Assembly: GCA_902796335.1 (NCBI GenBank)
Contig: CADBOI010000158.1
Location: 1-37,432 of the forward strand
Length of the DNA stretch: 37,432 nt
Direction: 5' to 3'
Source: an uncultured Spirochaetales bacterium
GTDB lineage: Bacteria > Spirochaetota > Spirochaetia > Sphaerochaetales > Sphaerochaetaceae
Numbering within the stretch: the first letter of the stretch is position 1; every line of letters starts with the position of its first letter. Shown here in pieces: positions 12,012 through 37,432 of this stretch. The notes under the pieces were generated by a model. That model did not search any database and was not told where the DNA came from. It saw only the letters and a program-made list of their open reading frames with translations. Made by a program: the position numbers and the translations under genes.

Positions 12012-12115
12012 CCAATCAACGCTGGTAATCAACAGGAATCAATAAGAATCCGAAAGGCTTCAATGATTTGCCTTTTTATGCTAAACATATGGTGAAATTT
12101 TTAGGTGGTGTTGCG

Positions 12116-18196: not shown

Positions 18197-19246
18197 ATGA
18201 ACAGTTTCAAGGGTTTTCAGAAGGGAGTGAATCTGGGTGGCTGGATATCCCAGTTCAAGGAGTATGACACCAGACACTTCGAGACTTTCATCACGGAAAA
18301 GGACATTGCCGACATTGCCTCACTCGGTTTTGACCATGTCAGGGTTCCTGTGGACTACAATGTCCTGGAAGATGAGGAAGGTATTGAAATCACCGGTGGT
18401 TTCGAATATTTGGAGCATTGCAGGCAGTGGTGCGAGAAATATGGACTGAACATGCTCATTGACCTTCATGAGTGCTACGGATATTCGTTCGATCCTCTTA
18501 AGAAAGGCATGGACAGAAGGAAGTTCTTCTATGACCAGGCTCTTCAGGAAAGGTTCTTCAGCCTTTGGAAGAAGATTGCAGAACGCTTTGCCTCCTATCC
18601 TGACCAGGTGGCGTTCGAGCCGCTGAACGAGGTCGTTCTGTTTGAGGTCAAGGATGCCTGGAATGCCGTCCTTACCAAGTATATAAAGCTGATGAGGTCC
18701 ATCGCTCCCGGAAGCTACATCGTGGTGGGAGGTGTCTTCTACAACAGCGTGATGACGGTAAAGGATCTGGATGTTCCCGTGGACGACAGAATCGTCTACA
18801 ACTTCCATTGCTACGAGCCGACAGTTTTCACGCATCAGGGCGCCTACTGGCAGGAGAACATGCCGCTGGACTTCAGGACCGTTTATCCGAAATCCGTCGC
18901 TGAATACAGAGAACTGCATGAGAAGATCTACTGCGACAGGGACAGTGCCATATTCATGGACGGTCTGACGGACATGGGTCCCGGTTTCTTCGAACGAATC
19001 TTCGAGCCTGCCCTTGAGAAGGCAAGACGGGACGGGGTTGCCATATATTGCGGTGAGTACGGTGTCATAGACAAGGCCGACAACGAATCGAAGATCCGCT
19101 GGCTTGAGGACATCAGCGCTGCATTCGGGAAGTACGGAATAGGTCATGCCCTGTGGAACTACAAGGAAAAGGATTTCGGGCTTGTGGATTCCCGCTTTGA
19201 ATCGATCAGACAGAGGTTCATAAAAGACATCAACGGCACTATGTAA
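18197..19246 (+). CDS. Glycoside hydrolase family 5 (cellulase/endo-beta-glycanase type), cytoplasmic
   Basis: RBS AGGAGG. 349 aa with no signal peptide. Motifs: GVNLGGWIS, FDHVRVPVDY, acid/base in FEPLNEV, HCYEP, and nucleophile in YCGEYGV. Confidence 0.9.
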   Translation: MNSFKGFQKGVNLGGWISQFKEYDTRHFETFITEKDIADIASLGFDHVRVPVDYNVLEDEEGIEITGGFEYLEHCRQWCEKYGLNMLIDLHECYGYSFDPLKKGMDRRKFFYDQALQERFFSLWKKIAERFASYPDQVAFEPLNEVVLFEVKDAWNAVLTKYIKLMRSIAPGSYIVVGGVFYNSVMTVKDLDVPVDDRIVYNFHCYEPTVFTHQGAYWQENMPLDFRTVYPKSVAEYRELHEKIYCDRDSAIFMDGLTDMGPGFFERIFEPALEKARRDGVAIYCGEYGVIDKADNESKIRWLEDISAAFGKYGIGHALWNYKEKDFGLVDSRFESIRQRFIKDINGTM

Positions 19247-19299
19247 CAGGTGAAAGCCTCGTTTCAGTAAAATAGGGGATGACAATCCGCCTTGATGGT

Positions 19300-19314
19300 G
19301 ATAGACTGTCTATC
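19300..19314. promoter_or_regulatory. Perfect 15-bp palindrome immediately upstream of the LRR lipoprotein start codon
   Basis: GATAGAC-T-GTCTATC has 7-bp arms and a 1-nt centre, and ends 3 nt before the ATG at 19318. A 1-nt centre cannot form a hairpin loop, so this looks more like a dimeric protein-binding site. Confidence 0.3.
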
Positions 19315-19317
19315 GCC

Positions 19318-23699: not shown

Positions 23700-25052
23700 A
23701 TGAGTCTGCATGAGAAATTCAACTTTGAAACGCTCGCTGATATTAGAAAGAAGACCTCCGAGCTGGGGTTGGGAATCGGATTTGACGAGAATCTGGATGT
23801 CCTCGGAACCCCGCTTGCGGTGGGGAAACTGATATGTCCCAACAGATTCGCAGTACTTCCTATGGAAGGTTGTGACAGCAATCCTGACGGTTCTCCCTCT
23901 CAGCTGGTTCATGACAGATATCTCAAATATGCAGAAGGTGGCTTCGGTCTTATCTGGTTCGAGGCAAATGCCATTGTCCCTGAGGGAAGGGCTAACGAAC
24001 TTCAGATGATGCTCACAGCAAGCAATGTAAGTAAGTTCAGAGAACTTGTGCAGGAAGTCGATGATCTTTCGATGAAGAAACACGGATTCAAACCAATCAA
24101 GATCCTGCAGCTCACACATTCAGGACGATACAGCAGACCTGAAGGACATATTGCCCGTCCTCTGGTTCCGCAGCACGATCCGCTTCTGGACAAGGGAAGC
24201 GAGGTCATTGTTTCCGATGAATATCTGGACAGCCTTGTGGAGCGTTATGTAATCAGTGCCATGCTTGCCAAAGAAGCCGGATTTGATGGCGTGGATATTA
24301 AGGCATGCCACAGATATCTGATCAGCGAGCTATTGGCCTCACATACCAGAGAAGGCCGGTACGGTGGGTCTTTCGAGAACCGCACCAGACTGCTTCTTTC
24401 TGTAATCAGGGCCGTCAGGGAAAAACTGGGTGATGAATTCATTGTTGCAAGCAGATTCAATGTCTTCGATGCCCATCCTTATCCATACGGATTCGGGTGT
24501 GACAAGGACGACATGTGGAAGTTCGATCCGTCGGAGCCTGTCAGACTGGTCAGGGAAATGGTCGCTTCCGGTGTTGGTCTCCTTTCTAACTCCGGCGGAA
24601 ACCCGTATTACATCTACCCGCAGGTCACCAGACCGTTTGATAAGTCCAGCTACGGAATCCCTGTTCCTGAAGAACATCCGCTTGAAAGCGTGGACAGACT
24701 ATTCGTTCTTACAGAGGTTGTACAGAAAGCTGCGGGAAATGTGCCGGTAATCGGAAACGGATACAGCTGGCTGAGACAATTCCTACCCAATGCCGCTGCT
24801 TCAAACATCAGAGCCGGACGTTGTTCCATGGTTGGTCTGGGTCGTGAAAGCTTCGCCTATCCTATGGCACCGGCTGATGTCTTTGAGAAAGGAGCTATGG
24901 ATCCCAAGAAGTGCTGCATCACCTGCTCTCTGTGCACACAGATAATGCGTGATCATGGGACAACGGGATGTGTAATCAGAAACAGTGGTACATATATGCC
25001 ATTATATAAGAAATTCAACGCTGAAGCTGTTGAAAGGGAACATCGAAAATGA
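23700..25052 (+). CDS. Old Yellow Enzyme-family NADH:flavin oxidoreductase TIM barrel, ending in a [4Fe-4S] Cys motif and lacking the fused FAD/NAD(P)H domain
   Basis: RBS AGGAG. 450 aa with FAVLPMEGC, QLTHSGRYS and GFDGVDIKACHRYLISELLAS...GRYGGSFENRTRLLL (OYE/2,4-dienoyl-CoA reductase-type barrel). C-terminal C-x2-C-x2-C-x11-C (CITCSLCTQIMRDHGTTGC, nt 24915-24971). Confidence 0.85.
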   Translation: MSLHEKFNFETLADIRKKTSELGLGIGFDENLDVLGTPLAVGKLICPNRFAVLPMEGCDSNPDGSPSQLVHDRYLKYAEGGFGLIWFEANAIVPEGRANELQMMLTASNVSKFRELVQEVDDLSMKKHGFKPIKILQLTHSGRYSRPEGHIARPLVPQHDPLLDKGSEVIVSDEYLDSLVERYVISAMLAKEAGFDGVDIKACHRYLISELLASHTREGRYGGSFENRTRLLLSVIRAVREKLGDEFIVASRFNVFDAHPYPYGFGCDKDDMWKFDPSEPVRLVREMVASGVGLLSNSGGNPYYIYPQVTRPFDKSSYGIPVPEEHPLESVDRLFVLTEVVQKAAGNVPVIGNGYSWLRQFLPNAAASNIRAGRCSMVGLGRESFAYPMAPADVFEKGAMDPKKCCITCSLCTQIMRDHGTTGCVIRNSGTYMPLYKKFNAEAVEREHRK

Positions 25053-25828
25053 ACAGTAAGATTAAGAAGACAGCTCTGATCACAGGTTCCAGCAGAGGCA
25101 TTGGCCTTGCCATTGCACGGCAGCTCGGTCTTGACGGATTCAAGGTCGTCATGGTTGCAACCGGCTCCAGGGAGAAATACGCTGCTGCAGTCGAAAGCCT
25201 TGAGAAGCTTGGAATCGAAGTCGGTTATATCCAGGCTGACATATCGAAAACCGAGGATAGACATAGGATTGTCAGGGAGGCTGTCGAACTCTTCGGCCGG
25301 ATAGATGTGCTTGTGAACAATGCCGGTGTTGCCCCGAATGAGAGGGCTGATCTTCTGGACATGTCGGAAGAATCGTTTGACCGGGTCGTCGGAATCAATA
25401 CCAAGGGCAACATGTTCCTGACACAGGCAGTCGTAAAGCAGATGCTGAAGCAGAATCCGATTGAACAGCGCCGAGGTGTTATCGTGAATGTTTCATCATG
25501 CTCATCGGTTGTCTCATCCACCAACAGGGGCGAATACTGTGTCTCAAAGGCAGGAATCTCCATGCTTACCACACTGTATGCCGACAGGCTGGCGGGAGAG
25601 GGTATTCTAGTCCACGAGGTCAGGCCGGGTGTTATAGACACCGATATGACCAGTACGGTACATGAAAAATACGACAGACTCATAGAGCAGGGCGTATTCC
25701 CGATTGCCCGCTGGGGAAAGCCGGAAGATGTTGCAAATGCCGTCAGTGCCCTTGTTTCGGATAAGTTCCTGTATACCACAGGCGATTACGTCGACGTTGA
25801 CGGAGGTTTCCACATAAAGCGCCTATGA
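25049..25828 (+). CDS. Short-chain dehydrogenase/reductase (3-oxoacyl-ACP reductase-like)
   Basis: ATGA start/stop overlap with the upstream gene. 259 aa with TGSSRGIGLAIA (cofactor site), NNAG and S...YCVSK catalytic residues. Confidence 0.9.
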   Translation: MNSKIKKTALITGSSRGIGLAIARQLGLDGFKVVMVATGSREKYAAAVESLEKLGIEVGYIQADISKTEDRHRIVREAVELFGRIDVLVNNAGVAPNERADLLDMSEESFDRVVGINTKGNMFLTQAVVKQMLKQNPIEQRRGVIVNVSSCSSVVSSTNRGEYCVSKAGISMLTTLYADRLAGEGILVHEVRPGVIDTDMTSTVHEKYDRLIEQGVFPIARWGKPEDVANAVSALVSDKFLYTTGDYVDVDGGFHIKRL

Positions 25829-27744
25829 TTGAAATCGTCAAAGTCAACACATGCATAGTCGGAACCGGAGCTGCCGGTTACAATGCCGCATGCAGACTCA
25901 AGGTATTCGGAGTTGATGACATCCTTCTCATAAGTGAGAACCGTCTGGGCGGGACCAGCCGGAATACCGGAAGCGACAAGCAGACTTATTACAAACTCTC
26001 TCTGAGCGGAGATGATCCTGACAGTGTAAGGGAGATGGCGAGAACCTTGTTCGAAGGAAAGGCTGTGGACGGGGACATCGCACTTTGTGAGGCGGCGCTG
26101 AGTACCAGAAGCTTCATGCATTTGGTAGAATCCGGTCTTCCGTTTCCTACAAACAGATACGGCGAGTTCGTTGGCTACAAGACTGACCATGACCCGAGAA
26201 CCAGAGCTACTTCCATAGGACCTTATACTTCCAGAGCAATGACACAGGCTCTGGAACTTGAAGCAGATAATCTGGAAGTTCCCTTCAGAAACCATCTGCA
26301 GGTCATCCGTACTCTTTCGGACGGAAAAAAGTGCCTCGGACTTCTCTGTCTGGACAATACTAGCTCCGATGAGCCGCATTTTGTAGCAATCGAGGCCGCG
26401 AATGTGATTCTTGCAACCGGCGGACCTGCCGGTATGTATTTGAATTCGGTCTATCCTCAGAGCCAGCACGGAGCTTCGGGTCTTGCATTCGAGGCCGGTG
26501 TGAAAGGCAGGAACCTTACTGAATGGCAGTTCGGTCTGGCATCAGTAAGGCCGAGATGGAATGTAAGCGGGACTTACATGCAGGCTCTGCCAAGATTCGT
26601 ATCCACTGATGCCGACGGAAACGATGAGAAGGAGTTCCTCCTACAGTATTTTGATACCCCTGAGGATATGTTGTCCAAGGTCTTTCTGAAAGGCTATCAA
26701 TGGCCGTTCGATGTCCGTAAAATCGGTGACGGAAGTTCAATCATCGATATTCTGGTTTACATAGAGCTGTCGGAAGGCAGAAGGGTTTTCCTTGATTTTA
26801 CAACCGATCCTGTTAGCGGTGGATTTGATTTCGATGGCCTGAATCCTGAGGTATATGCTTATCTTTCAAAGGCAGGTGCGCTTGTCAGGACACCGATAAA
26901 GCGCCTTGAAATAATGAATCAGCCAGCCATAGACTTCTACAGGGATAAAGGTGTGGACCTTGAAACCGAAAGGCTTGAGATTTCCCTCTGTGCTCAGCAC
27001 AACAACGGCGGTCTTGATCTGGACGCCTGGTGGCAGAGCAACGTAGAAGGACTTTTCGTTGCAGGTGAGGTCGCGGGAAGCCACGGTGTTTACCGTCCCG
27101 GTGGTTCGGCATTGAATGCAGGGCAGGTAGGATCTCTCAGAGCCGCCACGTACATAGCTGCAAGACGCAGGGATGCCAGTGTGGACGAAAAACAATTCTC
27201 TATCCTTCTTAAGCAGGCTTCGGACGAGATGAAAGCCATCTGCGACCTGACGCGGGGAGATATCTCAAACGTTGAAAAGACAGAGAAACATTTCTGCAAT
27301 CTGATGAGCAGGTTCTGCGGTCCTATCAGAGATGAGAACAACATCCGTTCCTTCATAGATGAAATCAATACTGTTATTGCGGATTTCTGCGGTAAGGTGC
27401 GGTATTCGGACTATTCGGAACTGAAGAACGTATTCAAGCTTAGAGATAATCTGATTGCCCAGAAGTGCTATGCCCAAAGCATGCTTGATTACATCAGAGA
27501 AGGTGGGAAAAGCAGGGGCAGCGCTCTCTATCATGATGAAAGCGGACAGAAGCCCTATGGTTTTCTACCTGAGACTTTCAGATTCTGTCGTGATGACGGA
27601 TCCAAGGATTCCCTGATCCAGGAGATGTTCTATGTGGACGGAAAGTGTTCCTTCTTCTGGAGACCTGTAAGACAGATTCCAGACGATGACGATTTCTTTG
27701 AGAATGTCTGGCGAAGTTTCCGGGAGAACGGGAACGTCAACTGA
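25825..27744 (+). CDS. FAD-binding oxidoreductase of the fumarate reductase / succinate dehydrogenase / L-aspartate oxidase flavoprotein class
   Basis: ATGA start/stop overlap with the SDR gene. 639 aa with N-terminal dinucleotide fold IVGTGAAGYNAA, then ILATGGPAG and LFVAGEVAGSHGVYRPGGSALN. No Fe-S or membrane-anchor subunit gene lies adjacent. Confidence 0.8.
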   Translation: MIEIVKVNTCIVGTGAAGYNAACRLKVFGVDDILLISENRLGGTSRNTGSDKQTYYKLSLSGDDPDSVREMARTLFEGKAVDGDIALCEAALSTRSFMHLVESGLPFPTNRYGEFVGYKTDHDPRTRATSIGPYTSRAMTQALELEADNLEVPFRNHLQVIRTLSDGKKCLGLLCLDNTSSDEPHFVAIEAANVILATGGPAGMYLNSVYPQSQHGASGLAFEAGVKGRNLTEWQFGLASVRPRWNVSGTYMQALPRFVSTDADGNDEKEFLLQYFDTPEDMLSKVFLKGYQWPFDVRKIGDGSSIIDILVYIELSEGRRVFLDFTTDPVSGGFDFDGLNPEVYAYLSKAGALVRTPIKRLEIMNQPAIDFYRDKGVDLETERLEISLCAQHNNGGLDLDAWWQSNVEGLFVAGEVAGSHGVYRPGGSALNAGQVGSLRAATYIAARRRDASVDEKQFSILLKQASDEMKAICDLTRGDISNVEKTEKHFCNLMSRFCGPIRDENNIRSFIDEINTVIADFCGKVRYSDYSELKNVFKLRDNLIAQKCYAQSMLDYIREGGKSRGSALYHDESGQKPYGFLPETFRFCRDDGSKDSLIQEMFYVDGKCSFFWRPVRQIPDDDDFFENVWRSFRENGNVN

Positions 27745-29239
27745 GTTCTACCTTTAATCCATCGAGGAAGCGGGCATCTCCCTCTTCCGAATATATTCCG
27801 AAAAGTGTTCCGGTGAAACAGTTTCCGCACGTGCAGCCGGTGGTAAGTCCTGCATAGGAAATTCTGTCGACCAGAGTATCTGCGGCATAGAATTCATAGA
27901 ATTCCCTTGTGGCTACTATCCTGAGCTCGATTGTCTCATCTGCCCGACAGCTTTCAAGCTGTATTTCCCTTGTTGTAGCTCCCAGATCATGTATATGTCT
28001 GTAAACTGAAGCCGCGACATGCCCACCGGTCTTTGAGATTCCCATTCTGGCATGGTAGTTTGTCTGAAGCCATGTGCAGACACCTGCTGTTCCGCTGAGA
28101 CTTCCCAGATCAAGTCTTGCTGTGAAAATGCAGTTGAAATCAGACTGTCTGACTGCCATCATTGTTGGGTGTCCGAGCGGTGTCTCAAGTCTCCGGTCTC
28201 CGATCAAGGTGATGCTTGCAGTACTTTTTTCCTGAAGATAGCAGTTTTCTTTGGGAACTCTGATTTTCAGAACAGGGAAGTCTGAGAGTTCTTTTTTGAA
28301 ATCAACATATATGCCGGTATTATCATGCTGTTCCGATGGAACAATGTCCGGCATCTCAAGTTCCACATATCCGTTGTCTCCAATCACAGGCCATCCATCA
28401 TCAGCCCATGAGACAGGGGCAAGAAACGTCTCGCGTCCCAGCGTGGTCAGAGGGACATTGGTGTTCTTTCTTGTGGCAAGGAAGACTGCAATCCATCTGC
28501 CGTCGGGAAGTTCCAGCAGATCGGCATGTCCGGTGCACTGTATCGGATGTCCTTTCCTGCTTACATGAGAAAGAATCGGATTGTCCGGATTCTGCTCATA
28601 AGGTCCGTGAATGTCTTTGCTGCGAAGGACGCACACATGATGCCCTATACCCGTTCCGCCTTCGGCGATGATGAGGTAATAATATCCGTTTCTGAAATAG
28701 ATGTGAGGTGCCTCTGTAGAATGACCACCGCAGCTTCCTGCTATCGGTCTGAAATCTTCCAGCATCTTACCTGTAAGTGGGTCAATGAACGCTCCGAAAA
28801 TACCTCTCGCGTTCGTGTGTGGATCGATTTCGCCGTTGGAAGTGTAGAAGCAGCGCCCGTCATCGGTGAAGAAAAGGGACGGGTCAATTCCGGTTTTGCA
28901 GATGAAGGAGGGATCTGTCCACGGACCGTGTATGCTTTCAGATGAAACTACGAAATTGAACTTCAGATATTTGTTCGTCGTGACGACATAGAAGCGACCG
29001 TCATGGTGTCTGATTGTGGCGGCATAGAGCCCGAGGCTGTCCGGACTCCTGTCTAGATCAAGAGTGCCTTGGGTTTTGAGTACACTGTCGCAATAAGACC
29101 AGTTCACCAAATCCGTACTTTCCCAGATGGTCACACCCGGAAAATACTCGAATGTAGAGGTTGCAATGTAGAAATGTCCGTCAACATAGCAGATTGAAGG
29201 ATCAGGATTGAAGCCCGGGATTATTGGATTTCTGTACAT
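27737..29239 (-). CDS. Glycoside hydrolase family 43 (beta-xylosidase / alpha-L-arabinofuranosidase type) with a C-terminal beta-sandwich domain, cytoplasmic
   Basis: 500 aa. The N-terminus MYRNPIIPGFNPDPSICYVDGHFYIATSTFEYFPGVTIWESTDLVNW is the classic GH43 opening. No signal peptide. The 3' end overlaps the convergent FAD-protein gene by 8 nt. Confidence 0.9.
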   Translation of the reverse strand: MYRNPIIPGFNPDPSICYVDGHFYIATSTFEYFPGVTIWESTDLVNWSYCDSVLKTQGTLDLDRSPDSLGLYAATIRHHDGRFYVVTTNKYLKFNFVVSSESIHGPWTDPSFICKTGIDPSLFFTDDGRCFYTSNGEIDPHTNARGIFGAFIDPLTGKMLEDFRPIAGSCGGHSTEAPHIYFRNGYYYLIIAEGGTGIGHHVCVLRSKDIHGPYEQNPDNPILSHVSRKGHPIQCTGHADLLELPDGRWIAVFLATRKNTNVPLTTLGRETFLAPVSWADDGWPVIGDNGYVELEMPDIVPSEQHDNTGIYVDFKKELSDFPVLKIRVPKENCYLQEKSTASITLIGDRRLETPLGHPTMMAVRQSDFNCIFTARLDLGSLSGTAGVCTWLQTNYHARMGISKTGGHVAASVYRHIHDLGATTREIQLESCRADETIELRIVATREFYEFYAADTLVDRISYAGLTTGCTCGNCFTGTLFGIYSEEGDARFLDGLKVELS

Positions 29240-29373: not shown

Positions 29374-30330
29374 ATGAAAAGACGAAAGTCGGACGGGATT
29401 TCTGAATTAGTGATTCGTGAGCCGTTGTCCAAACGCATGAGGAAAGACTGGAGCAAGAACAAAGGTCTGTATTTTATGTTCCTTCCTGTTCTTGTCTACT
29501 ATATCATCTTCCATTATGGACCGATGGCCGGTCTTCTGATTTCATTCCAGAACTACAAGCCAATCAAGGGTATCTTCGGGAGCAAGTGGGTAGGACTGAA
29601 GAACTACAGAGATTTCTTTCAGAGCTACTATTTCTGGCGTGTTCTGAGAAATACTCTGAAGATAAGTATCACCAACCTGATTTTCAGCTTCCCGATGCCG
29701 ATTATCCTTGCTCTGATGATCAACGAGCTCCGCACAAGGTATTTCAAGAAGATGGTTCAGACCATAACCTATCTGCCGCACTTCGTGTCGATTGTCGTCA
29801 TCATCTCCATGCTTTCCGATCTGACATCCAGAAACGGTGCCATTACGACTTTCCTGGCACACTTCGGATTCGAACAGCAGACAATGCTGCAGAATCCGAA
29901 ACTGTTCCTTCCCCTTTATATCATCTCAGGAATCTGGCAGAACATCGGTTGGAACTCGATCATCTACCTTTCGGCAATCATCGGAATAGATGCTCAGCTT
30001 TATGAGGCTGCGAAGATCGACGGAGCAGGAAAGCTGAGACAGCTGTTCTCCGTGACGCTTCCCTGTCTGTTCCCGACAATCATCATCATGTTCATCCTGC
30101 AGATAGGAAAGATGTTCAATGTCGGACATGAGAAGATACTCCTCATGTACAACCCGCTTACAATCGACGTTGCTGATGTCATCAACACATATGTTTACAG
30201 TGAAGGTCTTCTGAACATGAACTGGAGCTATTCGGCAGCAGTAGGCATGTTCAACTCCGTCGTGAGTTTCCTCCTGGTCTGGGGAACAAACAAGTTCAGT
30301 AAAAAACTGAGCGGCTCGAGTCTTTGGTAA
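29374..30330 (+). CDS. Carbohydrate ABC transporter permease (LplB/YteP-type)
   Basis: RBS GGGAGAG. 318 aa. The N-terminus ...KNKGLYFMFLPVLVYYIIFHYGPMAGLLISFQNYKP is typical of LplB-type permeases. EAA-loop region AAKIDGAGKLRQLFSVTLP. Confidence 0.9.
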   Translation: MKRRKSDGISELVIREPLSKRMRKDWSKNKGLYFMFLPVLVYYIIFHYGPMAGLLISFQNYKPIKGIFGSKWVGLKNYRDFFQSYYFWRVLRNTLKISITNLIFSFPMPIILALMINELRTRYFKKMVQTITYLPHFVSIVVIISMLSDLTSRNGAITTFLAHFGFEQQTMLQNPKLFLPLYIISGIWQNIGWNSIIYLSAIIGIDAQLYEAAKIDGAGKLRQLFSVTLPCLFPTIIIMFILQIGKMFNVGHEKILLMYNPLTIDVADVINTYVYSEGLLNMNWSYSAAVGMFNSVVSFLLVWGTNKFSKKLSGSSLW

Positions 30331-30340
30331 GGAGGTGAAC

Positions 30341-31225
30341 ATGTCAGACAAACCCATGAAAGTCAGATATACAAACGGAGAGAAGGCTCTGCACGTGATT
30401 ATCGTAGTCGTCTGTGCGTTTCTGTCTCTTGCAGTTCTTCTTCCGATGCTCAACATCCTTTTCGGAGCATTCTCTGATCCATATGAGGTCATGAAACATT
30501 CCGGACTGTTTCTCTATCCTGTCAGTCCCACCTTCTACAATTTCAAGCTGGTTTTCCAGAATCCGAGCATACTGACCGGATATCTGAACACGATTTTCGT
30601 TGTTGTCGTAGGAACGGGCCTGAATGTCTTCCTTTCGTTGATCGGAGCATACGTTCTTTCCAGAAAGGGAGCAGCCCTGGTGAAGGTCTTCACACTGATG
30701 ATTGTATTCACCATGTATTTCAACGGCGGAACAATTCCCACATATCTGGTCGTCGAGTCCCTCGGACTTATAAATTCCAGATGGGCTCTGATTCTTCCGG
30801 GTGCAATCAGCACATTCAATCTGATCGTCATGAGAACCGCAATGGCCCAGATTCCGGACAGTCTGCCTGAATCAGCCATGATAGACGGCGCGACTCATCC
30901 CCAGGTGCTATTCATGATCATGACACCGCTGTGTAAGGCCACGGTAGCAGTCATTGTCCTGTATTATGCGGTTGCCCACTGGAACTCCTGGTTCCCGGCC
31001 TTCCTGTATCTGCGTGACAAGACAAAGTATCCTCTTCAGCTGATACTCAGACAGATTCTGTTCCAGGAAGAGACGAACAGCATGGCTGCCGAGAACCTTG
31101 CCCTGTCAAGTGAAGCTGTCAAATACGCAACGATTGTTGTGGCAACGGTTCCGATTCTTCTTGTCTATCCGTTCCTTCAGAGATATTTCGTCAAGGGCGT
31201 TATGGTCGGCGCTGTAAAGGGTTGA
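30341..31225 (+). CDS. Carbohydrate ABC transporter permease (LplC/YtcP-type)
   Basis: The ATG at 30341 follows AAGGAGG; the track start at 30335 is a GTG inside the RBS spacing. 294 aa with EAA loop ESAMIDGATHPQVLFMIMTP. Confidence 0.9.
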   Translation: MSDKPMKVRYTNGEKALHVIIVVVCAFLSLAVLLPMLNILFGAFSDPYEVMKHSGLFLYPVSPTFYNFKLVFQNPSILTGYLNTIFVVVVGTGLNVFLSLIGAYVLSRKGAALVKVFTLMIVFTMYFNGGTIPTYLVVESLGLINSRWALILPGAISTFNLIVMRTAMAQIPDSLPESAMIDGATHPQVLFMIMTPLCKATVAVIVLYYAVAHWNSWFPAFLYLRDKTKYPLQLILRQILFQEETNSMAAENLALSSEAVKYATIVVATVPILLVYPFLQRYFVKGVMVGAVKG

Positions 31226-31228
31226 GCA

Positions 31229-31987
31229 ATGATCGGATTCGGGTTGGTAAGTGCAACATTCAAAGGTCTCTCTGTACGGAAAGTGCTTGAAATTGCACAT
31301 AATGCTGGTCTTCAGGCCATCGAATGGAGCGAGAACCACCACATTCCTTCAGGCGATGTGTCCTTTGCCGCCGAAGTCGGGAATCTCACACGTGATGCAG
31401 GCATCGCTATTGCAGGCTACGGATCCTATTTCCGTCTTGGTCAGGGTATGGACTTGACTGCGAGTCTGAATACCGCCAGGAGCCTTGGTGCTGACCAGGT
31501 CCGTATCTGGGCTGGGACCAAAGCCTCTGCAGATGTTTCCAAAGAGGAGAGAAAGGCACTTGAGAGAGAGCTTTCCGATGTCTGCCTCATTGCTGCGGAC
31601 ATGGGTATTGTCCTGAACCTGGAATGGCACAAGAACACACTGACGGATACAAATGAATCAGCCCTTGCATTGCTTCAGAATGTTGACTGTCCGAATCTGA
31701 GAACACTCTGGCAGCCGACACAGGCCCTTACAGAGGAGCAGCGTGAGGCCGGTCTGAAGATGATTCTTTCTTATCTCTCTTATCTGCATGTCTATCACTG
31801 GGACAAAACTGGAAGGAGACCTCTGGAGGAGGGCAGAACACAGTGGGAACGCTATTTCTGTGTTCTCAATGAAAACAAAGACTATTATGCGCTTCTGGAA
31901 TTCGTAAAGGACGATTCCGAAGATCAGTTTTATAAGGACTCGGAAGTCCTGAAGGAGATGCTTGGCTATGGCAGATTTGCACATTGA
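31229..31987 (+). CDS. Xylose isomerase-like TIM-barrel protein (sugar phosphate isomerase/epimerase family)
   Basis: It starts 3 nt after the permease stop. 252 aa: ...LEIAHNAGLQAIEWSENHH...LGADQVRIWAG...VLNLEWHKNTLTD...LHVYHWD, the pattern of alternating metal-ligand His/Glu/Asp strands seen in this fold family. Confidence 0.75.
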   Translation: MIGFGLVSATFKGLSVRKVLEIAHNAGLQAIEWSENHHIPSGDVSFAAEVGNLTRDAGIAIAGYGSYFRLGQGMDLTASLNTARSLGADQVRIWAGTKASADVSKEERKALERELSDVCLIAADMGIVLNLEWHKNTLTDTNESALALLQNVDCPNLRTLWQPTQALTEEQREAGLKMILSYLSYLHVYHWDKTGRRPLEEGRTQWERYFCVLNENKDYYALLEFVKDDSEDQFYKDSEVLKEMLGYGRFAH

Positions 31988-33191
31988 CTGTTTTGACATG
32001 ATTAATCCGTTCGTAATCGCCTCCAGCCCCGCTACAAGAGGTGCGGACAATGTGATAAAAAGCTCATCCTGCAAACCGGGTGCTGTTACAATGCGCAACT
32101 ACGGCCACGGCATGGGTGGCGGCGGATTCTTCTATCCGTCATTCGATGCGGTTCTCAAGGGCCAGCCGGCTTTCCATTCCCACGCGGTAGGCAAACAGCT
32201 TCCGGATACCATGAGTTCTCTGGACGAGTACTGTGAAGAGGTGAGAAAGGCCCGCAGGGAAATGTATCCCGAGACAAAGCTCTGGGCTTCGGTCGGACAT
32301 TATCATGATATCGAGAAATATCCTGACTGGAAGGAGAGGTGGGTCCGCGAGGCCAAGGATGTTGTGGCAGCCGGTGCAGATGCAGTAGAGCTTCACTTCA
32401 ACACCCCAGGTGTCGCCACAGCATCCGACAGACAGTTCAACTATTACCAGCTGGTTGCAACATGCACAAAGATGATCAAGGCTGCCGTTCCCGGAACTCC
32501 GGTAATGGTCAAACTTGCCATTGAGGATTGTGATTGTCTTACCAGCATCCGCGAGGCTGTAGCAGCCGGAGCCGATGCAGTAGGGCCGACGGCAAGATGG
32601 AAGGCTTTCTATTTCGATCTCGACTGGAAGACAACACAGCCAAGACCGGGTTCGGGCTACGGCGGAACACAGGCCAATCCGCTTGTGTGCTTTGAAGTTG
32701 CCGATGCCCGCTCCAGGGGTATAACCATTCCCATGTATGCCGGCGGAGGAGTGTTCTCCTATGATCAGGCCCTGCGCTATATCATGGCGGGATCGGACAT
32801 GGTCCAGTTCGGTGCAATCGCATGTTCGGGTGGAACCAAGGTCTGCGAGAAGATCATCAGACAGTGCTCGGAATGGATGGATAAGAACGGATATAAGAGC
32901 GTGAAGGACCTGAAGGGTGAGGCCCTCAAGCTCTTCAATATGGACAGTTCCTTTGCAAAAAGACGTCAGGACAAGCTGGGTGAGGCTTACAGACTCAGAG
33001 ATACCGATCCTGAGAAATGCATAGGCTGCGGACGCTGTACTGATGTTTGCTGGTACAAGGGAATCGAGTTGAGGAACAAGAAAGCCTGTAAGACGGAAAA
33101 CTGCATTGGTTGCGGTTACTGTTTCCAGGTCTGTCCAACCAAGGCGCTTGAGGTCGATGCAGCAGGCATTCTGAAAAGTGCCTGGGATTGA
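31968..33191 (+). CDS. Dihydroorotate/dihydropyrimidine dehydrogenase-like flavin TIM barrel with a C-terminal 2x[4Fe-4S] ferredoxin domain
   Basis: The ATG at 31968 (track start 31962 is a TTG) overlaps the upstream gene by 20 nt. 407 aa with N-terminal NPFVIASSPATRG, then VELHFNTPG, VMVKL and MYAGGGV (DHOD-fold landmarks). Two ferredoxin motifs follow: CIGCGRCTDVC and CIGCGYCFQVCP (nt 33018-33137). Confidence 0.8.
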   Translation: MADLHIDCFDMINPFVIASSPATRGADNVIKSSSCKPGAVTMRNYGHGMGGGGFFYPSFDAVLKGQPAFHSHAVGKQLPDTMSSLDEYCEEVRKARREMYPETKLWASVGHYHDIEKYPDWKERWVREAKDVVAAGADAVELHFNTPGVATASDRQFNYYQLVATCTKMIKAAVPGTPVMVKLAIEDCDCLTSIREAVAAGADAVGPTARWKAFYFDLDWKTTQPRPGSGYGGTQANPLVCFEVADARSRGITIPMYAGGGVFSYDQALRYIMAGSDMVQFGAIACSGGTKVCEKIIRQCSEWMDKNGYKSVKDLKGEALKLFNMDSSFAKRRQDKLGEAYRLRDTDPEKCIGCGRCTDVCWYKGIELRNKKACKTENCIGCGYCFQVCPTKALEVDAAGILKSAWD

Positions 33192-33203
33192 TGAGGTGGG
33201 GAG

Positions 33204-34328
33204 ATGGAGACAAGAGTCCTGCTATGCGGAATGGGCGGTTACGGCGAGAACTACATAAAAGAATATCTTGAGAGGGATGTTCTTGGTTCTGTTCTTGTCG
33301 GTATTGCCGATCCGTTCGCACAGAAAAGCCACCTGTATCCCGATGTTGTGGCAAAGGGAATTCCGGTCTATGACTCAATGGACAGTTTTTATGCAAAGGA
33401 CAGAGCGGATCTTGTCATAATTTCATCTCCGATTCATACCCATTACCCCTATGTGATGTCGGCTCTGGACCATGGCAGCAACGTACTTACGGAAAAGCCC
33501 GTCTGTTTTGATCCGTTTCATTTCAGCGAGATGATCGAGAAGAGCAGCCGAACAGGTCTGTTCGTAGCGGTTGGCTATCAGCTCTGCTTCTCAAAGGATG
33601 TCCTTGCTCTGAAGAGGGACATTCTGGATGGAGTGTATGGGAAGCCGGTCAGGATGAAGACCATCAGGCTCATGAGAAGGAACGACATCTATTACAGCAG
33701 ATCATCCTGGGCCGGGGCCATGTACTGCAATGGTGCACCGGTCTATGATTCCCCGTTTACAAATGCCTGTGCCCATCAGTTCCAGAACATGGTTTTCCTT
33801 CTGGGCAGAGAGATGGATGCGAGCGTAACAACATCCTCATGTAAAGGTATACTGGCAAAAATCAGACCGAATATCACAAACTGTGATACCGTAAGTCTTG
33901 AGTTTGTCACTGAAGACGGAGTTGTTCTCCAGTACCATGCATCACATGCTGTTGATGAGGCCAAGATCGGTCCTCTCAGCGTCTACGAGTTTGAGAAAGG
34001 CACTGTGGAACAGGGTGAGAACGGATTTGTGGGAAGACTGGATGACGGAACCCTGTTGGACTACACCTGTCTGGATAAGGGCGAACGTCTTGAAAAGCTT
34101 TGGGAAAGTGTCCGGTGTGTACAGGAGGGCCGGATTCCGGTCTGTACCTTGAAGACGGCGTTCGAGCATACCCATGCAGTGCTTATGGCGCAGCAGATGG
34201 GTGTCCGGGATCTGTCTGCAGGGGCCATCGGAAAAAAGGATGACAAGGGCAGCGTCTATTACACGATGGATGGTCTGAGTCAGTCGTTACAGAATGCCTA
34301 TGCGCAGTGGCGCATTGCAGAAATATGA
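33204..34328 (+). CDS. Gfo/Idh/MocA family NAD(P)-dependent oxidoreductase
   Basis: RBS GAGGTGGGGAG. 374 aa with N-terminal Rossmann VLLCGMGGYG, the family-typical EKP motif (VLTEKPV) and a C-terminal alpha/beta substrate domain. Confidence 0.85.
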   Translation: METRVLLCGMGGYGENYIKEYLERDVLGSVLVGIADPFAQKSHLYPDVVAKGIPVYDSMDSFYAKDRADLVIISSPIHTHYPYVMSALDHGSNVLTEKPVCFDPFHFSEMIEKSSRTGLFVAVGYQLCFSKDVLALKRDILDGVYGKPVRMKTIRLMRRNDIYYSRSSWAGAMYCNGAPVYDSPFTNACAHQFQNMVFLLGREMDASVTTSSCKGILAKIRPNITNCDTVSLEFVTEDGVVLQYHASHAVDEAKIGPLSVYEFEKGTVEQGENGFVGRLDDGTLLDYTCLDKGERLEKLWESVRCVQEGRIPVCTLKTAFEHTHAVLMAQQMGVRDLSAGAIGKKDDKGSVYYTMDGLSQSLQNAYAQWRIAEI

Positions 34329-34367
34329 TTACGAACGGTCATTGAAACCGTAAAAAAGGAGAAAAGA

Positions 34368-35942
34368 ATGAAGAAAGCATTGTTAGTTTTGCTAGCAGTT
34401 CTTCTGATTGCAGGACCTGTCTTCGCACAGGGCGCAGCAGAAGCCAAGACAAACAACGGGCCGGATGAGTTGACCTATTGGGCAACACTGAACGCTGCCA
34501 TCACAGCCAACAGCTTCGATGAGCTGCCGTACTGGCAGGAGCTTATGGCAAGAACGAACACAAAGGTCACATTCCAGCATGTTGCTGCCGGCAACAATGT
34601 TGCCGAGGCCTTCTCTGTTCTTACAGCATCCCGCAGATCCATGCCCGATATCATCGAGTATCAGTGGATCAATTACGCAGGTGGTCCCCAGAAGGCAATC
34701 GATGACGGTGTCATCATTGCATTGAACGATTATCTGGATTATGCTCCGAACCTCAAGAAGTTCCTGGAGACACATCCTGATATCGCCAACATGGTCAAGA
34801 CCGACCAGGGATACTACTACTGCTTCCCGTTCCTCAGAGGCGACAGCTATGAGAACAACACACTCCTTTACACGGAAGGCTGGGTATACAGGACAGATCT
34901 TCTTGCAAAGGCCGGTGTAGATGCTATCCCCGAGACTCCGGATGAGCTCTATGATGCCTTGGTCAAAATCAAGAAATCCGGACTTGTGGAGTGGCCGATT
35001 GCCATCAGAAGCGACCATATCAACAGAGTTTTTGCTCCTGGTTTTGACTCATGGGGAGAGAACGAAGGTATCTATGTGGACAACGGCGTGGTCAAGAGCG
35101 GTCTGATTGAGCCACAGAGATATGATTATCTGAAGTTCCTCAACAAGCTCTATACAGAAGGCCTTCTTTACAGCGACTATCTCACTCTGGACAAGAAGGG
35201 AATGGGTAACCTGATCCTCAACTCAACCACAGCCATCGGATATGCTCCCGGCGGAAGCGGAATCGGAACATGGCTCCCGAAGATGCAGAAGGATGATCCG
35301 TCTGTCACAATGTCCTCAGCAAAGCCGCTCTCACCTGTGAAGGGAAGACTCTCTATGTTCGCAAAGATGGATACCATCTACTCCAACGCCGGTGCATCAG
35401 CCGCCATCACAACAAGCTGCAAGAACATCGAAGCTGCAATGAGACTTCTTGACTACCAGTTCAGCAAGGAAGGACATCTTCTGGCCAACTACGGTATCGA
35501 GGACGTTTCCTACAAGATCGAGAACGGTGAGCCGGTTTACCTCGAGGCTGTTCTCAATGCCGACGGAGTCCTTGATTCCACAAAGGCATGGCAGTACATG
35601 AGATTCACCATCAACGGACCGTTTGTCCAGGAGCCGAAGGCACAGAAGTTCTACTATGCAGTTCCTGAGCTCCAGGAAGCTCTTGTCCTCTGGTCACAGA
35701 CAAACTACGGCGAGCACGATATGTCTCTGATCACCGTTTCTTCGGATCACGCTGATGAGTATGCAAAGATTGTCAACGACGTCAAGACATATGCAAAGGA
35801 GTGGGAGAACAAGTTCATCACAGGCGTAACTCCGCTCAATGAGAAGACATTCGCAGAGTATCAGGCCGGTCTCAAGGGTCTGAAGCTCGAGCAGGCTGTC
35901 GCATGGAGACAGGAAGCATACAACGCTTACGTCTCAAGATAA
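34368..35942 (+). CDS. Extracellular solute-binding protein of a carbohydrate ABC importer (LplA-type, large SBP)
   Basis: RBS AAGGAG. 524 aa with signal peptide MKKALLVLLAVLLIAGPVFAQG and the length and pattern of LplA/YtcQ-type SBPs (...ELTYWATLN...PYWQELMARTN...). Confidence 0.9.
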   Translation: MKKALLVLLAVLLIAGPVFAQGAAEAKTNNGPDELTYWATLNAAITANSFDELPYWQELMARTNTKVTFQHVAAGNNVAEAFSVLTASRRSMPDIIEYQWINYAGGPQKAIDDGVIIALNDYLDYAPNLKKFLETHPDIANMVKTDQGYYYCFPFLRGDSYENNTLLYTEGWVYRTDLLAKAGVDAIPETPDELYDALVKIKKSGLVEWPIAIRSDHINRVFAPGFDSWGENEGIYVDNGVVKSGLIEPQRYDYLKFLNKLYTEGLLYSDYLTLDKKGMGNLILNSTTAIGYAPGGSGIGTWLPKMQKDDPSVTMSSAKPLSPVKGRLSMFAKMDTIYSNAGASAAITTSCKNIEAAMRLLDYQFSKEGHLLANYGIEDVSYKIENGEPVYLEAVLNADGVLDSTKAWQYMRFTINGPFVQEPKAQKFYYAVPELQEALVLWSQTNYGEHDMSLITVSSDHADEYAKIVNDVKTYAKEWENKFITGVTPLNEKTFAEYQAGLKGLKLEQAVAWRQEAYNAYVSR

Positions 35943-35963
35943 TCAGTAATTCTGATTTCAGAC

Positions 35964-35995
35964 GCATTGGATTGGCCTTCGGGCCAGTCCGATGC
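35964..35995 (+). terminator. Strong stem-loop after the SBP gene (terminator or mRNA-stabilising hairpin)
   Basis: GCATTGGATTGGCC-TTCG-GGCCAGTCCGATGC forms a 14-bp stem with two G.U pairs and a UUCG tetraloop. It is followed by TGTTCTG, a weak U-tract. Confidence 0.55.
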
Positions 35996-36035
35996 TGTTC
36001 TGTCAATAAACGGTGTGAAAAAAAGGAAAACGGAC

Positions 36036-37432
36036 ATGACTGAATTTGAGATTCTGAAGACGCATCTCAAGGACGATTTCAAAGAACTGGACGGAAAGAC
36101 TCTCCTGCAGCACTTCGCTGAGAGGAAGAAACCCGTCTACCTGTTTCAGGCCACGGAGGCATCGGAAATAGAGGATGACGGCATTGTCGCCGATGCCGAG
36201 AAGGTCATGCAGCATGACATCTTCGGACATAAGTTCAATGGTCCGATTGACTGGATGTTCAACCCAACCACGGAAACCAGCAGAGACAATGAGTGGAGCT
36301 GGTCGCTTTTCCGCACCATTTATTGGCAGAGTCTTGCAAGAGCCTATGCCGTCACGAAGGATGAGAAATACACCAGGGAGTTCCTTTCCCAGATGCACTC
36401 GTTCCGTGAAGCCTGGCCTGCAGACGAATTCATCAAAGACACGACCTTCGTGCCAAAACAGCCGTTTCCGGGGACAGCATGGAGAACCATAGAGACCGGA
36501 ATCAGGGTTTATACGACATGGCTTCCGGTTTTCGAGATCTTCAGGAGTTCTCCTGTGTGGACAATTGATGACCTTGCAGGCTTCCTTCTTGGAATAAGGG
36601 ACCATGCGTTGTTCCTTATGGGCCATTATTCCAACCATGACAGATCCTCCAACTGGCTGAGCATGGAGACCAGCGCATTGCTGCAGATTTCGATAATGTT
36701 CCCTGAATTCGCTGAGTCCGGGCAATGGTTCGACACGGCCTACGGACGGGTAATGCATGAAATCCGTTACTGCTTCTCAGACAACGGTGTGCACATGGAG
36801 AAAACTCCAATCTATCACATGGTTGCATCGATAGCATTTGCCCAGGCCATAGTCCTTTGCAGCAAAAACGGAATCTACGTTCCGGACTATGCGTGGGAAG
36901 TGATAAGAAGAAGTGCTAAATACATCTGCTCGCTGGTAAAGCCGGATCTCTCGACACCTATGATAGGTGATGCCGACAGGGATGATCTGACAACCAGAAA
37001 GGCAGATACTTCCATCTACGAGGGCATGAATCTTTCGTTCTTCCCAAGGGATCTCAATGAAATCCGTGCCTACATGAACTGGATGTATCAGCTTTTCGGT
37101 GACGAGCAGTTCCGCTATTTCGGAACACTGCGCAAGGAAGGGGACGAACCGAAGGCCAGAGACTACAAGTATTCTGAGGAAGGTGTATATGTGATGCGCA
37201 CTGGATGGGGTCCTGATGCGGATTACCTGTGCACTCATGCAACTCAGCTGGAACGGGGAGAAAGGTCCACCCATTCGCATAACGACTGCATGCATGCCGA
37301 ACTTACTCTGTGCGGAGAGGATGTTCTGGTTGACAGCGGACGCTACATCTACAGATCCTCCATATGGAAGGACTGGAGGTCCTATTTCGTTTCCGCACTG
37401 GCCCACAACACTCTCTATGTGGACGACCATGA
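36036..37432 (+). CDS. Heparinase II/III-like (polysaccharide lyase-type) protein, 3'-truncated by the window edge, cytoplasmic
   Basis: This ORF is not in the track. I translated by hand from the ATG at 36036 and found 465 codons with no stop up to the window end. Sequence: MTEFEILKTHL...WSWSLFRTIYWQSLARAYAVTKDEKY...AWRTIETGIRV...NHDRSSNWLSMETSALL...HSHNDCMHAELTLCGEDVLVDSGRYIY...LAHNTLYVDDH. The pattern matches an alginate-lyase-like N-domain plus Hepar_II_III motifs. No signal peptide. Confidence 0.85.
   Translation, partial: MTEFEILKTHLKDDFKELDGKTLLQHFAERKKPVYLFQATEASEIEDDGIVADAEKVMQHDIFGHKFNGPIDWMFNPTTETSRDNEWSWSLFRTIYWQSLARAYAVTKDEKYTREFLSQMHSFREAWPADEFIKDTTFVPKQPFPGTAWRTIETGIRVYTTWLPVFEIFRSSPVWTIDDLAGFLLGIRDHALFLMGHYSNHDRSSNWLSMETSALLQISIMFPEFAESGQWFDTAYGRVMHEIRYCFSDNGVHMEKTPIYHMVASIAFAQAIVLCSKNGIYVPDYAWEVIRRSAKYICSLVKPDLSTPMIGDADRDDLTTRKADTSIYEGMNLSFFPRDLNEIRAYMNWMYQLFGDEQFRYFGTLRKEGDEPKARDYKYSEEGVYVMRTGWGPDADYLCTHATQLERGERSTHSHNDCMHAELTLCGEDVLVDSGRYIYRSSIWKDWRSYFVSALAHNTLYVDDH

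Follow-up and report, generated by a model that had tools for sequence, protein, structure and literature searches.

We analysed a stretch of 37,432 nucleotides from an uncultured Spirochaetales bacterium (GenBank assembly GCA_902796335.1, contig CADBOI010000158.1, positions 1 to 37,432 of the forward strand), called the window below. From position 29374 to its end, the window carries genes for two sugar permeases, a xylose-isomerase-fold TIM barrel (TIM1), an Fe-S flavoprotein with the fold of dihydroorotate dehydrogenase (DHOD) and dihydropyrimidine dehydrogenase (DPD), here named DHODl, a Gfo/Idh/MocA oxidoreductase (Gfo1), a large solute-binding protein (SBP) and a lyase-like protein related to the PL12 heparinases. 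These genes form the 5' half of a cluster of about 17 kb, which is conserved and cytoplasmic, in a rumen spirochaete (Sphaerochaetaceae-like). Judging from the sequence relationships described here, we consider it fairly probable that this cluster imports uronic-acid-containing oligosaccharides and degrades them by oxidation and elimination, without the usual hydrolases.

The cluster continues beyond the window and is conserved in Spirochaetales and Clostridia

The window ends within the gene of the lyase-like protein. A contig from a rumen metagenome in ENA (L001) agrees with window positions 33979-37432 over all 3454 nt except for 1 mismatch, and the SBP that it encodes is identical. It continues, in this order, with the full 657-aa lyase-like protein, a second TIM barrel (TIM2; AP_endonuc_2, 256 aa), a second Gfo/Idh/MocA protein (Gfo2; L001 4837-5928, about 3.4 kb beyond the window end), a BD-FAE-type esterase, an AraC-family regulator, a third Gfo/Idh/MocA protein (Gfo3) and an Ldh_2 dehydrogenase. 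The AraC regulator was called as two overlapping open reading frames (ORFs) of 502 and 116 aa at L001 6768-8577, with HTH_18 in the shorter one. In relatives it is a single gene of 733-742 aa, and the split probably reflects a frameshift or faulty assembly of the contig.

One genome per GTDB species was scanned with two DHODl peptides, ELHFNTPG (32388-32411, + strand) and GPTARWK (32583-32603, + strand), and the pair was matched in 131 species. The loci of the best 80 of these 131 were fetched, their ORFs were called and the products were compared with all proteins of the window and of L001. DHODl lay inside the same cluster in 80/80 fetched loci, from Spirochaetales and Clostridia, and never outside it. 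Complete loci were defined as those extending 9 kb or more to either side (n = 33). Among them, both permeases were present in 33, TIM2 in 32, TIM1, the lyase-like protein and Gfo2 in 31 each, and the SBP in 30. Gfo3 (26), Ldh_2 (24), AraC (23), Gfo1 (20) and a GH43 glycoside hydrolase (18) were less constant. A trio comprising a short-chain dehydrogenase/reductase (SDR), an old yellow enzyme (OYE) and a fumarate-reductase-like FAD protein was found in 10, 10 and 8 loci, respectively. Co-conservation of the enzymes with the transporter had been set beforehand as a test of the first-pass annotation, and the counts for the permeases, TIM1, the lyase-like protein and the SBP bear it out. The same annotation had treated the lyase-like gene as a mere follower of the operon; its presence in 31 of the 33 complete loci makes it a core member instead.

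The genes form two modules whose internal order is kept, [perm-perm-(Ldh_2)-TIM1-DHODl-(Gfo1)] and [SBP-lyase-TIM2-Gfo2-(AraC)-Gfo3]. The relative order of the modules swaps between phyla, and the genes flanking them are heterogeneous among loci. TIM1 is the immediate upstream neighbour of DHODl in 73/77 loci. When 96 unlabelled ORFs lying no more than 5 kb from the cluster in related loci were pooled and scanned with Pfam, no family proved recurrent, GH88, GH105, KduI, KdgK, KdgA and UxaC included, which indicates that the cluster is self-contained. The absence of GH88/GH105, KduI and KdgK/KdgA, first remarked on for the window, thus holds inside and beside the cluster, where none of them recurs.

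The hosts come mostly from the rumen, the hindgut and the human gut. They include the spirochaetes Bullifex porci, Ornithospirochaeta and Sphaerochaeta pleomorpha Grapes, and among the Clostridia Oscillospiraceae, Gemmiger formicilis, Subdoligranulum and Lachnospiraceae. S. pleomorpha Grapes (CP003155, cluster at 1.952-1.974 Mb), B. porci and G. formicilis are cultured carriers. In a full-text literature search, neither the cluster nor the flavoprotein family was described in any paper found, and the first-pass annotation had likewise known of no described pathway with a DHOD-like Fe-S flavoprotein in this context.

Gfo2 and Gfo3 resemble the oxidoreductases of the P2B11 glucuronide route

The strongest relationship to a characterised enzyme was obtained for Gfo2, which matched PDB 8TDI, 'P2B11 glucuronide-3-dehydrogenase', at 9e-93 (314 bits, 46% identity over 349 residues). 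The P2B11 enzymes split both alpha- and beta-glucuronides, first oxidising C3 and then proceeding by elimination and hydration, and the pocket of their first oxidoreductase, Oxido1, consists of Asn147, Trp179, Arg181, Tyr185, Asn205 and His209 (bioRxiv 10.1101/2024.03.25.586180). Gfo2 retains 6/6 of these residues when the 10-residue offset of the deposited chain is applied. Gfo3 aligns over its full length (334 aa) with the second P2B11 oxidoreductase, Oxido2, with 33% identity and an E-value of 1e-46. The cluster therefore has both dehydrogenases expected of a P2B11 variant, and by this likeness it would cleave uronides via 3-keto intermediates. These two matches support the earlier idea of an oxidation-elimination route, as a variant of the chemistry of Nasseri et al. 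(2024).

Gfo1 (33204..34328, + strand; Pfam GFO_IDH_MocA) is a divergent NAD(P) oxidoreductase of the same superfamily. It is 26% identical to Oxido2, and in the comparison with the Oxido1 pocket it aligned at 26% over 159 aa and does not qualify as an Oxido1-type dehydrogenase. Its best PDB match was WbpB, a UDP-GlcNAcA 3-dehydrogenase, at merely 2e-9. Gfo1 is an accessory member of the cluster.

The P2B11 locus itself was recovered from a gut metagenome (L087 5598-11038, 100% identical to 8TDI), and the cloning primers in the supplement of the P2B11 paper match the ORF starts of this contig. In it, the ORF immediately upstream of Iso1 encodes a UxuA-like protein (mannonate dehydratase), in keeping with a link of P2B11 to glucuronate catabolism. 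The order AraC-Iso1-Oxido1-Oxido2-Iso2 is common to many soil and gut relatives of P2B11, and an AraC-type regulator is likewise common in relatives of the present cluster. P2B11, from a Collinsella-like fosmid, and the present cluster share a cytoplasmic location, the pairs Oxido1/Oxido2 and Gfo2/Gfo3, and two xylose-isomerase-fold proteins. In contrast, P2B11 consists of four genes and has no transporter, lyase, Ldh_2 or flavoprotein, all four of which are found here, whereas the UxuA-like neighbour is not. The supplement text of the P2B11 paper does not mention heparinase, dihydroorotate or 4Fe-4S.

The same logic is found in the BT2156-2160 system of Bacteroides and the AL system of Alistipes, where a Gfo/Idh/MocA 3-dehydrogenase is combined with a 'sugar phosphate isomerase' that is a 3-keto-glycoside 1,2-lyase. 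Those systems act on neutral glucosides. The present cluster has no DUF1080 hydratase, and its proteins score 17-38 bits with the NCBIfam models of BT_2158/BT_2159, against cut-offs of 650-750.

Other pathways that combine such folds were considered and rejected. With the IolG model, Gfo1, Gfo2 and Gfo3 scored 52, 90 and 87 bits, respectively, against a cut-off of 355, and other iol genes are absent; the Gfo and TIM-barrel proteins are thus not ordinary inositol enzymes, a possibility that the first-pass annotation had named as fatal to its proposal. The Gfo proteins of the cluster also scored far below the cut-off of the levoglucosan dehydrogenase model. C-glycoside deglycosidases (DgpA/DgpB-C, CarA/B/C) were set aside, with DgpA matches of just E 4e-9 to 5e-5 and no small-subunit gene in the cluster.

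The TIM barrels and the conventional lyase route

TIM1 (31229..31987, + strand; Pfam AP_endonuc_2) and TIM2 were compared with Iso1 and Iso2 of P2B11. BLAST found nothing at E<1. At the profile level, hhalign joined TIM1 and Iso1 with a probability of 97.4 and an E-value of 9e-12, a closeness equal to that between Iso1 and Iso2; the probability for TIM2 and Iso1 was 87.4. The match is confined to this level, and the P2B11 proteins are longer (about 300 aa vs about 250 aa).

The sole PDB sequence match of TIM1 was AsbF, a 3-dehydroshikimate dehydratase (1.2e-11). A confident AlphaFold2 (AF2) model of TIM1 (pLDDT 95) was placed by Foldseek closest to AsbF (TM score 0.82) and then to the 3-keto-C-glycoside lyase DgpB-C (TM score 0.70). 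Both of these nearest structures eliminate beside a ring 3-keto group. Their identity to TIM1 is 13-21%, the likeness to DgpB-C is at the fold level only, and the DgpB-like small subunit that is part of DgpB-C is absent from the cluster. The fold and these nearest structures fit an eliminase, and TIM1 is a candidate for a lyase or dehydratase whose substrate would be a cyclic 3-keto acid.

TIM2 resembles ketose 3-epimerases, 3-keto-glucoside 4-epimerase and keto-acid isomerases. Its weak matches (IolO, hydroxypyruvate isomerase, 2-oxo-tetronate isomerase and ketose 3-epimerases) would also suit a different scheme, in which a conventional lyase route runs on non-orthologous enzymes and involves no 3-keto glycoside chemistry. 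An unsaturated uronate would then be converted via 4-deoxy-5-hexosulose uronate to 2-keto-3-deoxygluconate (KDG), a TIM barrel taking the part of KduI (aldose-ketose isomerisation) and a Gfo protein, Ldh_2 or the SDR that of KduD/DehR. Ldh_2 enzymes do act as 2-oxo acid reducers, the SDR has a sub-threshold KduD match, and KduI and KduD themselves are absent. Against this stand the 46% identity of Gfo2 to a glucuronide-3-dehydrogenase of defined structure and biochemistry, with all pocket residues retained, and the pairing of Gfo3 with Oxido2. The scheme also leaves the release of the unsaturated uronate without GH88/GH105 unexplained, likewise the Fe-S flavoprotein, and no KDG kinase or aldolase is nearby. 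We regard the conventional route as unlikely and favour the P2B11-type oxidation and elimination of uronides, by which the absence of GH88/GH105 is accounted for.

The importer and the lyase-like protein point to acidic oligosaccharides

The transporter genes are those of permease 1 (29374..30330, + strand; LplB/UgpA-like, CUT1 type; Pfam BPD_transp_1, 7e-15), permease 2 (30335..31225, + strand, GTG start; GlcU/UgpE/MalG-like by NCBIfam, with a weak Pfam match) and the SBP (34368..35942, + strand; Pfam SBP_bac_1), a large secreted protein of 524 aa with an N-terminal signal sequence. The best PDB matches of the SBP were AlgQ1/AlgQ2 (1e-25), followed by Smon0123 (5XS8, 5GUB, 5GX6 and 5GX8; 1e-20 to 2e-23), and its eight best PDB matches all bind uronate-containing oligosaccharides. 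Smon0123 is the binding protein of a Streptobacillus moniliformis importer for unsaturated glycosaminoglycan disaccharides (PMC5430744, PMC5717064), and 5GUB, 5GX6 and 5XS8 are cited in these papers. The SBP is thus a candidate binder of acidic oligosaccharides. With an SBP of this subfamily (E 1e-20 to 1e-25) and two CUT1-type permeases, the importer has the make-up of Smon0121-0123 and of AlgQ1/Q2-AlgM1M2. Unlike these importers, and as the first-pass annotation had stated, it has no ATPase gene in the window: a scan of all frames over the full length found neither LSGGQ nor Walker A. The Smon0121-0123 and alginate systems feed GH88 or exolytic lyases together with KduI/KduD or DehR, whereas the present cluster is without such enzymes.

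The gene of the lyase-like protein occupies 36036..37432 (+ strand, to the window end), which corresponds to codons 1-465 of 657 and covers Hepar_II_III_N (1.8e-54) and the start of Hepar_II_III_C. At full length, the protein has both domains of the PL12 enzymes (Hepar_II_III_N 184 bits, Hepar_II_III_C 80 bits), and its best PDB relatives are the PL12 heparinases III 4MMH (1.8e-30) and 5JMD. In the HMMER alignment, N206 (36651-36653), Y260 (36813-36815) and H413 (37272-37274) fall on Asn240, Tyr294 and His424 of 4MMH, of which Asn240 is the neutraliser and Tyr294/His424 are the acid/base residues (PMC12088678). These three candidate catalytic residues are invariant in 58 cluster homologues. 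The HepC equivalog model gave 125 bits against a cut-off of 700, and the secreted location of HepC is not shared. The protein is best described as a distant cytoplasmic PL12-like relative, not HepC. It shares both Pfam domains and the Asn/Tyr/His set with the heparinases III of Pedobacter (4MMH) and Bacteroides (5JMD), but its identity to them is at most about 25%, it lacks a signal peptide, and it is embedded with an ABC importer and oxidoreductases.

We assign a probable uronic-acid substrate because the SBP resembles AlgQ1/2 and Smon0123, the lyase-like protein keeps its Asn/Tyr/His set, and Gfo2 resembles the P2B11 dehydrogenase. The first-pass annotation had proposed the import of oligosaccharides or glycosides; this part stands and is narrowed to uronic-acid-containing substrates by these three proteins, with the qualification that the homologues which decide the matter are encoded beyond the window end.

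Small plant or host glucuronides, such as those of flavonoids or triterpenoids, would be another substrate class, from which the P2B11-like module would strip glucuronic acid while DHODl, with or without the OYE and FAD proteins, reduces a C=C bond of the aglycone. P2B11, discovered with aryl thio-glucuronides, is broad on alpha- and beta-glucuronides (bioRxiv 10.1101/2024.03.25.586180), several ene-reductase-type flavoenzymes accompany the cluster, and the hosts inhabit herbivore and human guts. We nevertheless judge this alternative very unlikely. The nearest relatives of the SBP are oligosaccharide binders for alginate and unsaturated glycosaminoglycan disaccharides, GH43 is a frequent neighbour, and the PL12-like lyase, a core member with an intact catalytic set in 31/33 loci, would have no role on a simple glucuronide.

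DHODl belongs to a discrete family of Fe-S flavoproteins

DHODl (31968..33191, + strand; Pfam DHO_dh and Fer4) was assigned its start at the ATG at 31968, with AAGGAG upstream; the homologues begin with MADL. It has the flavin mononucleotide (FMN)-binding TIM barrel (DHO_dh 36 bits vs a cut-off of 27), followed by a C-terminal 2x[4Fe-4S] domain with two CxxCxxCxxxC motifs (33018-33050 and 33102-33134, + strand). The PreA model gave 120 bits against a cut-off of 335, and the best PDB sequence match was 41 bits. For the AF2 model (pLDDT 85), the top Foldseek hit was pig DPD domains IV-V (2.6e-18), followed by DHODs, with 17-23% identity. Both Cys motifs and the FMN-side motifs (VKL, GGGV) are invariant in the DHODl family.

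The substrate side is different. In an alignment with Lactococcus lactis PyrD, ELNISCPN is replaced by ELHFNTPG, whereby the catalytic Cys becomes Thr and both Asn are replaced, and the MINT (mintlmg) segment is replaced by GPTARWK. We take this segment of PyrD to be the substrate-binding (I/M)N(T/S) motif of DHODs. The catalytic Cys/Ser loop and the pyrimidine-binding Asn of DHOD and PreA are thus not found in DHODl in this alignment, whereas ELHFNTPG and GPTARWK both occur in 118/120 DHODl homologues. Compared with PreA, the C-terminal half of DPD and class 1B DHOD, DHODl shares the FMN TIM barrel, and the 2x[4Fe-4S] domain follows as in PreA/DPD; the loop ELN(I/L)SCPN of PreA/DPD and PyrD has a Cys/Ser base that ELHFNTPG lacks. 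No PreT or PyrK partner gene was present in any of the loci mapped. DHODl therefore has the predicted fold of DPD/PreA but is neither a DHOD nor PreA.

When the family was searched against 1.84 billion 50%-identity representatives, DHODl was found to have one full-length cluster at 59% identity (570 bits), and generic PreA-like proteins reached at most 120 bits. A sister protein, P0364 (40% identity, 315 bits), has the motifs ELHLNTPG and GPTGRWK, and a relative at 31% (153 bits) has LHLQTG and PTARY. From these scores, DHODl appears to represent a new, discrete family. The gene of the 40% sister (L168 1265-2446) adjoins a 2-Hacid_dh_C dehydrogenase. That of the 31% relative (L166 8001-9215) is part of a different ABC sugar-importer cluster, which also encodes an OYE, a FAA_hydrolase-family protein, a DUF4838 protein and an FAD oxidoreductase. 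Two apparent fusions, P0362 with a PdxS-like C-terminal half and P0366 whose N-terminal half is regulator-like, have the look of chimeric assemblies and were discarded as evidence of coupling. The flavone reductase FLR was dropped as a possible relative, since the FLR paper shows no link to DHOD.

DHOD and DPD reduce a carboxylate-C=C-C(=O) unit. The O5-C5(COO-)=C4-C3(=O) unit of a 3-keto-4,5-unsaturated uronide is an isostere of both orotate and 3-dehydroshikimate, the latter being the carbocyclic analogue on which AsbF, the nearest relative of TIM1, acts. In addition, DHODl is paired with a 2-hydroxyacid dehydrogenase (Ldh_2 in the cluster, 2-Hacid_dh beside the sister). On these three grounds we infer, and only infer, that DHODl may be an ene-reductase of a uronate-derived alpha,beta-unsaturated keto-acid. 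Tentatively, and with less than even expectation, Ldh_2, TIM1 and DHODl could act on the uronate skeleton as 2-oxoacid reductase, dehydratase/lyase and ene-reductase, respectively. The most specific version of this idea is a more doubtful one, namely that the ELHFNTPG/GPTARWK family is a new class of carbohydrate-active, ferredoxin- or flavodoxin-driven ene-reductases saturating C4=C5 of 3-keto-4,5-unsaturated uronides, which the PL12-like lyase and the uronide 3-dehydrogenase would supply. Such donors would be needed because a PreT/PyrK gene is absent.

DHODl could instead serve in redox balancing or electron relay, by re-oxidising Gfo-bound NADH or by a ferredoxin-coupled dehydrogenation, or it could catalyse an unrelated sugar-acid step. 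Characterised 3-dehydrogenases hold their NAD bound and require a hydride acceptor to begin cycling, the two clusters imply an external redox partner, and the catalytic Cys or Ser of DHOD/DPD is missing. The substrate-side pocket, however, is intact and has family-specific invariant His, Asn, Thr, Arg and Lys, which argues for a small-molecule substrate. The fixed grouping of DHODl with a dehydratase/lyase-like barrel and with a 2-hydroxyacid dehydrogenase is also reminiscent of a set of dehydratase, ene-reductase and ketoreductase. A relay function or an unrelated step is in our view improbable, and we keep the ene-reductase as the working hypothesis for DHODl.

Distribution of Ldh_2 and the SDR/OYE/FAD trio

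In the 34 loci that have Ldh_2 beside TIM1, it lies between the second permease and TIM1. Comparing this position with the trio, we found the trio only in 14 loci, Ldh_2 only in 34, neither in 3 and both in 0 (L002-L030 vs L025-L081). All 14 trio loci belong to the clade nearest the window, and the exclusion may stem from a single evolutionary event, which makes it weak evidence. SDR copies from spirochaetes and from Subdoligranulum-like clostridia share 74-75% identity, which suggests horizontal transfer. Unrelated Clostridia and the loci L083/L084 also have OYE or SDR genes next to the cluster. The trio, present in only about a third of the loci, is a possible accessory reductive module that may be functionally linked to the cluster.

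Proposed pathway and points against it

In the pathway that we propose, the imported oligosaccharides would be cut at a 4-linked uronate by the PL12-like lyase. The terminal uronide, saturated or 4,5-unsaturated, would be oxidised at C3 by Gfo2, the TIM barrels would eliminate the aglycone and hydrate the glycal, and the 3-keto product would be reduced by Gfo3. This route would replace enzymes of the GH88/GH105/GH67 type, and GH43 would process the neutral remainder. DHODl would saturate the C=C bond of the uronate-derived enone, for which a 3-keto-4,5-unsaturated uronide is the most attractive candidate, with electrons reaching the flavoprotein via its clusters from ferredoxin or flavodoxin.

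Several observations weigh against this pathway. P2B11 works without a flavoprotein, a lyase or Ldh_2, so that the extra module is unneeded for the known chemistry, and the gain from a further reductive step is not obvious for uronates, which are already oxidised. No electron-donor gene (PreT/PyrK-like or ferredoxin) is present in the cluster. TIM1 and TIM2 match Iso1/Iso2 at the profile level only, and the assignment of their steps is inseparable. The strongest homologies, those of Gfo2 and Gfo3, sit beyond the window end, while Gfo1, the sole Gfo protein within it, is remote from characterised 3-dehydrogenases and is absent from many Clostridia, consistent with its 20/33 occurrence in complete loci. 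The class of polysaccharide is also ambiguous: GH43 hints at plant glycans and PL12 at heparan-type chains, the only ones for which PL12 is known to our knowledge, and the cluster contains no sulfatase and no amino-sugar genes.

An internal hairpin follows the SBP gene

A hairpin with a 14-bp stem, including 8 GC pairs, lies directly 3' of the SBP gene (35964..35995, + strand) and is the sole strong hairpin in the operon. The minimum free energy (MFE) of 35940-36040 is -34.6 kcal/mol, compared with -20.4 +/- 3.6 for shuffled sequences (z = -3.96). Hairpins of 10-14 bp with unrelated sequences directly follow the SBP stop in most of the 50 loci with the lyase-like gene 3' of the SBP gene (L002-L067), and the median MFE of the 110 nt after the SBP stop in related loci is -32 kcal/mol. 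The earlier observation that a strong hairpin appears only after the SBP gene is upheld, but not its reading as the end of the unit, given that the cluster runs on in L001 and the hairpin recurs in other loci. In our reading it is an intra-operon element, a stabiliser or an attenuator, by which SBP expression is increased.

Gene layout and neighbouring genes

From permease 1 to the SBP, the intergenic spacings are +4, +3, -20, +12 and +39 nt, and +93 nt separate the SBP gene from that of the lyase-like protein. Upstream and divergent lies the GH43 gene (27737..29239, - strand; Pfam Glyco_hydro_43, 1.8e-82, and GH43_C2), whose cytoplasmic product has a C-terminal beta-sandwich. Beyond it are the genes of the trio, assigned by Pfam: OYE (23700-25052, + strand), SDR (25049-25828, + strand) and the FAD protein (FAD_binding_2; 25825-27744, + strand). 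ORFs and Pfam matches thus confirm the gene order, the gaps, the divergent GH43 and the trio beyond it as first annotated. The absence of signal peptides from GH5, GH43 and the lyase-like protein was likewise confirmed from their N-termini, where the ORF starts run straight into the catalytic domains.

The GH5 gene (18197-19246; Pfam) encodes a cytoplasmic enzyme closely related to CelC of C. thermocellum (1CEC, 1e-73). It was rejected as a clue to the substrate, lying 10 kb off with unrelated genes between, and is probably unrelated to the cluster. In a Lachnospiraceae locus (L070), a copy of 66% identity lies about 2 kb, or three ORFs, away from the cluster. The window also encodes a BspA-type leucine-rich-repeat protein of 811 aa (19279-21714) and a papain-family cysteine protease of 698 aa with a lectin-like domain (9936-12032), which are of the host- or surface-interaction type and unrelated to the cluster. 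A 715-aa protein at 189-2336 is hydrophobic in its N-terminal region and carries an HD-GYP-like HD_5/HD domain at the C-terminus; in S. pleomorpha, a GGDEF/HD_5 protein is encoded upstream of the cluster too (L082 698-2710).

Implications for the degradation of uronic-acid glycans

The oxidation-elimination-hydration route of glycan degradation was reportedly first described in 2024 and is said to be known from a handful of clusters, its glucuronide version from one four-gene fosmid match. The present cluster would extend that chemistry by an importer for acidic oligosaccharides, a cytoplasmic polysaccharide-lyase homologue and a linked DHOD-fold Fe-S flavoprotein. If the proposed pathway is true, anaerobes have an entire route for uronic-acid glycans that annotation based on carbohydrate-active enzymes overlooks, since it would count only the lyase-like protein and GH43. 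The flavoprotein would then represent a new reaction type in carbohydrate catabolism. The cultured hosts make this model directly testable. On the more doubtful idea of a new ene-reductase class, DHODl together with TIM1 and Ldh_2 would provide strict anaerobes with a reductive, hydrolase-free use of lyase products that replaces GH88/GH105 and KduI/KduD. The LHLQTG/PTAR relatives that lie in further sugar-importer clusters would then point to a broader family of sugar ene-reductases that has gone unrecognised.

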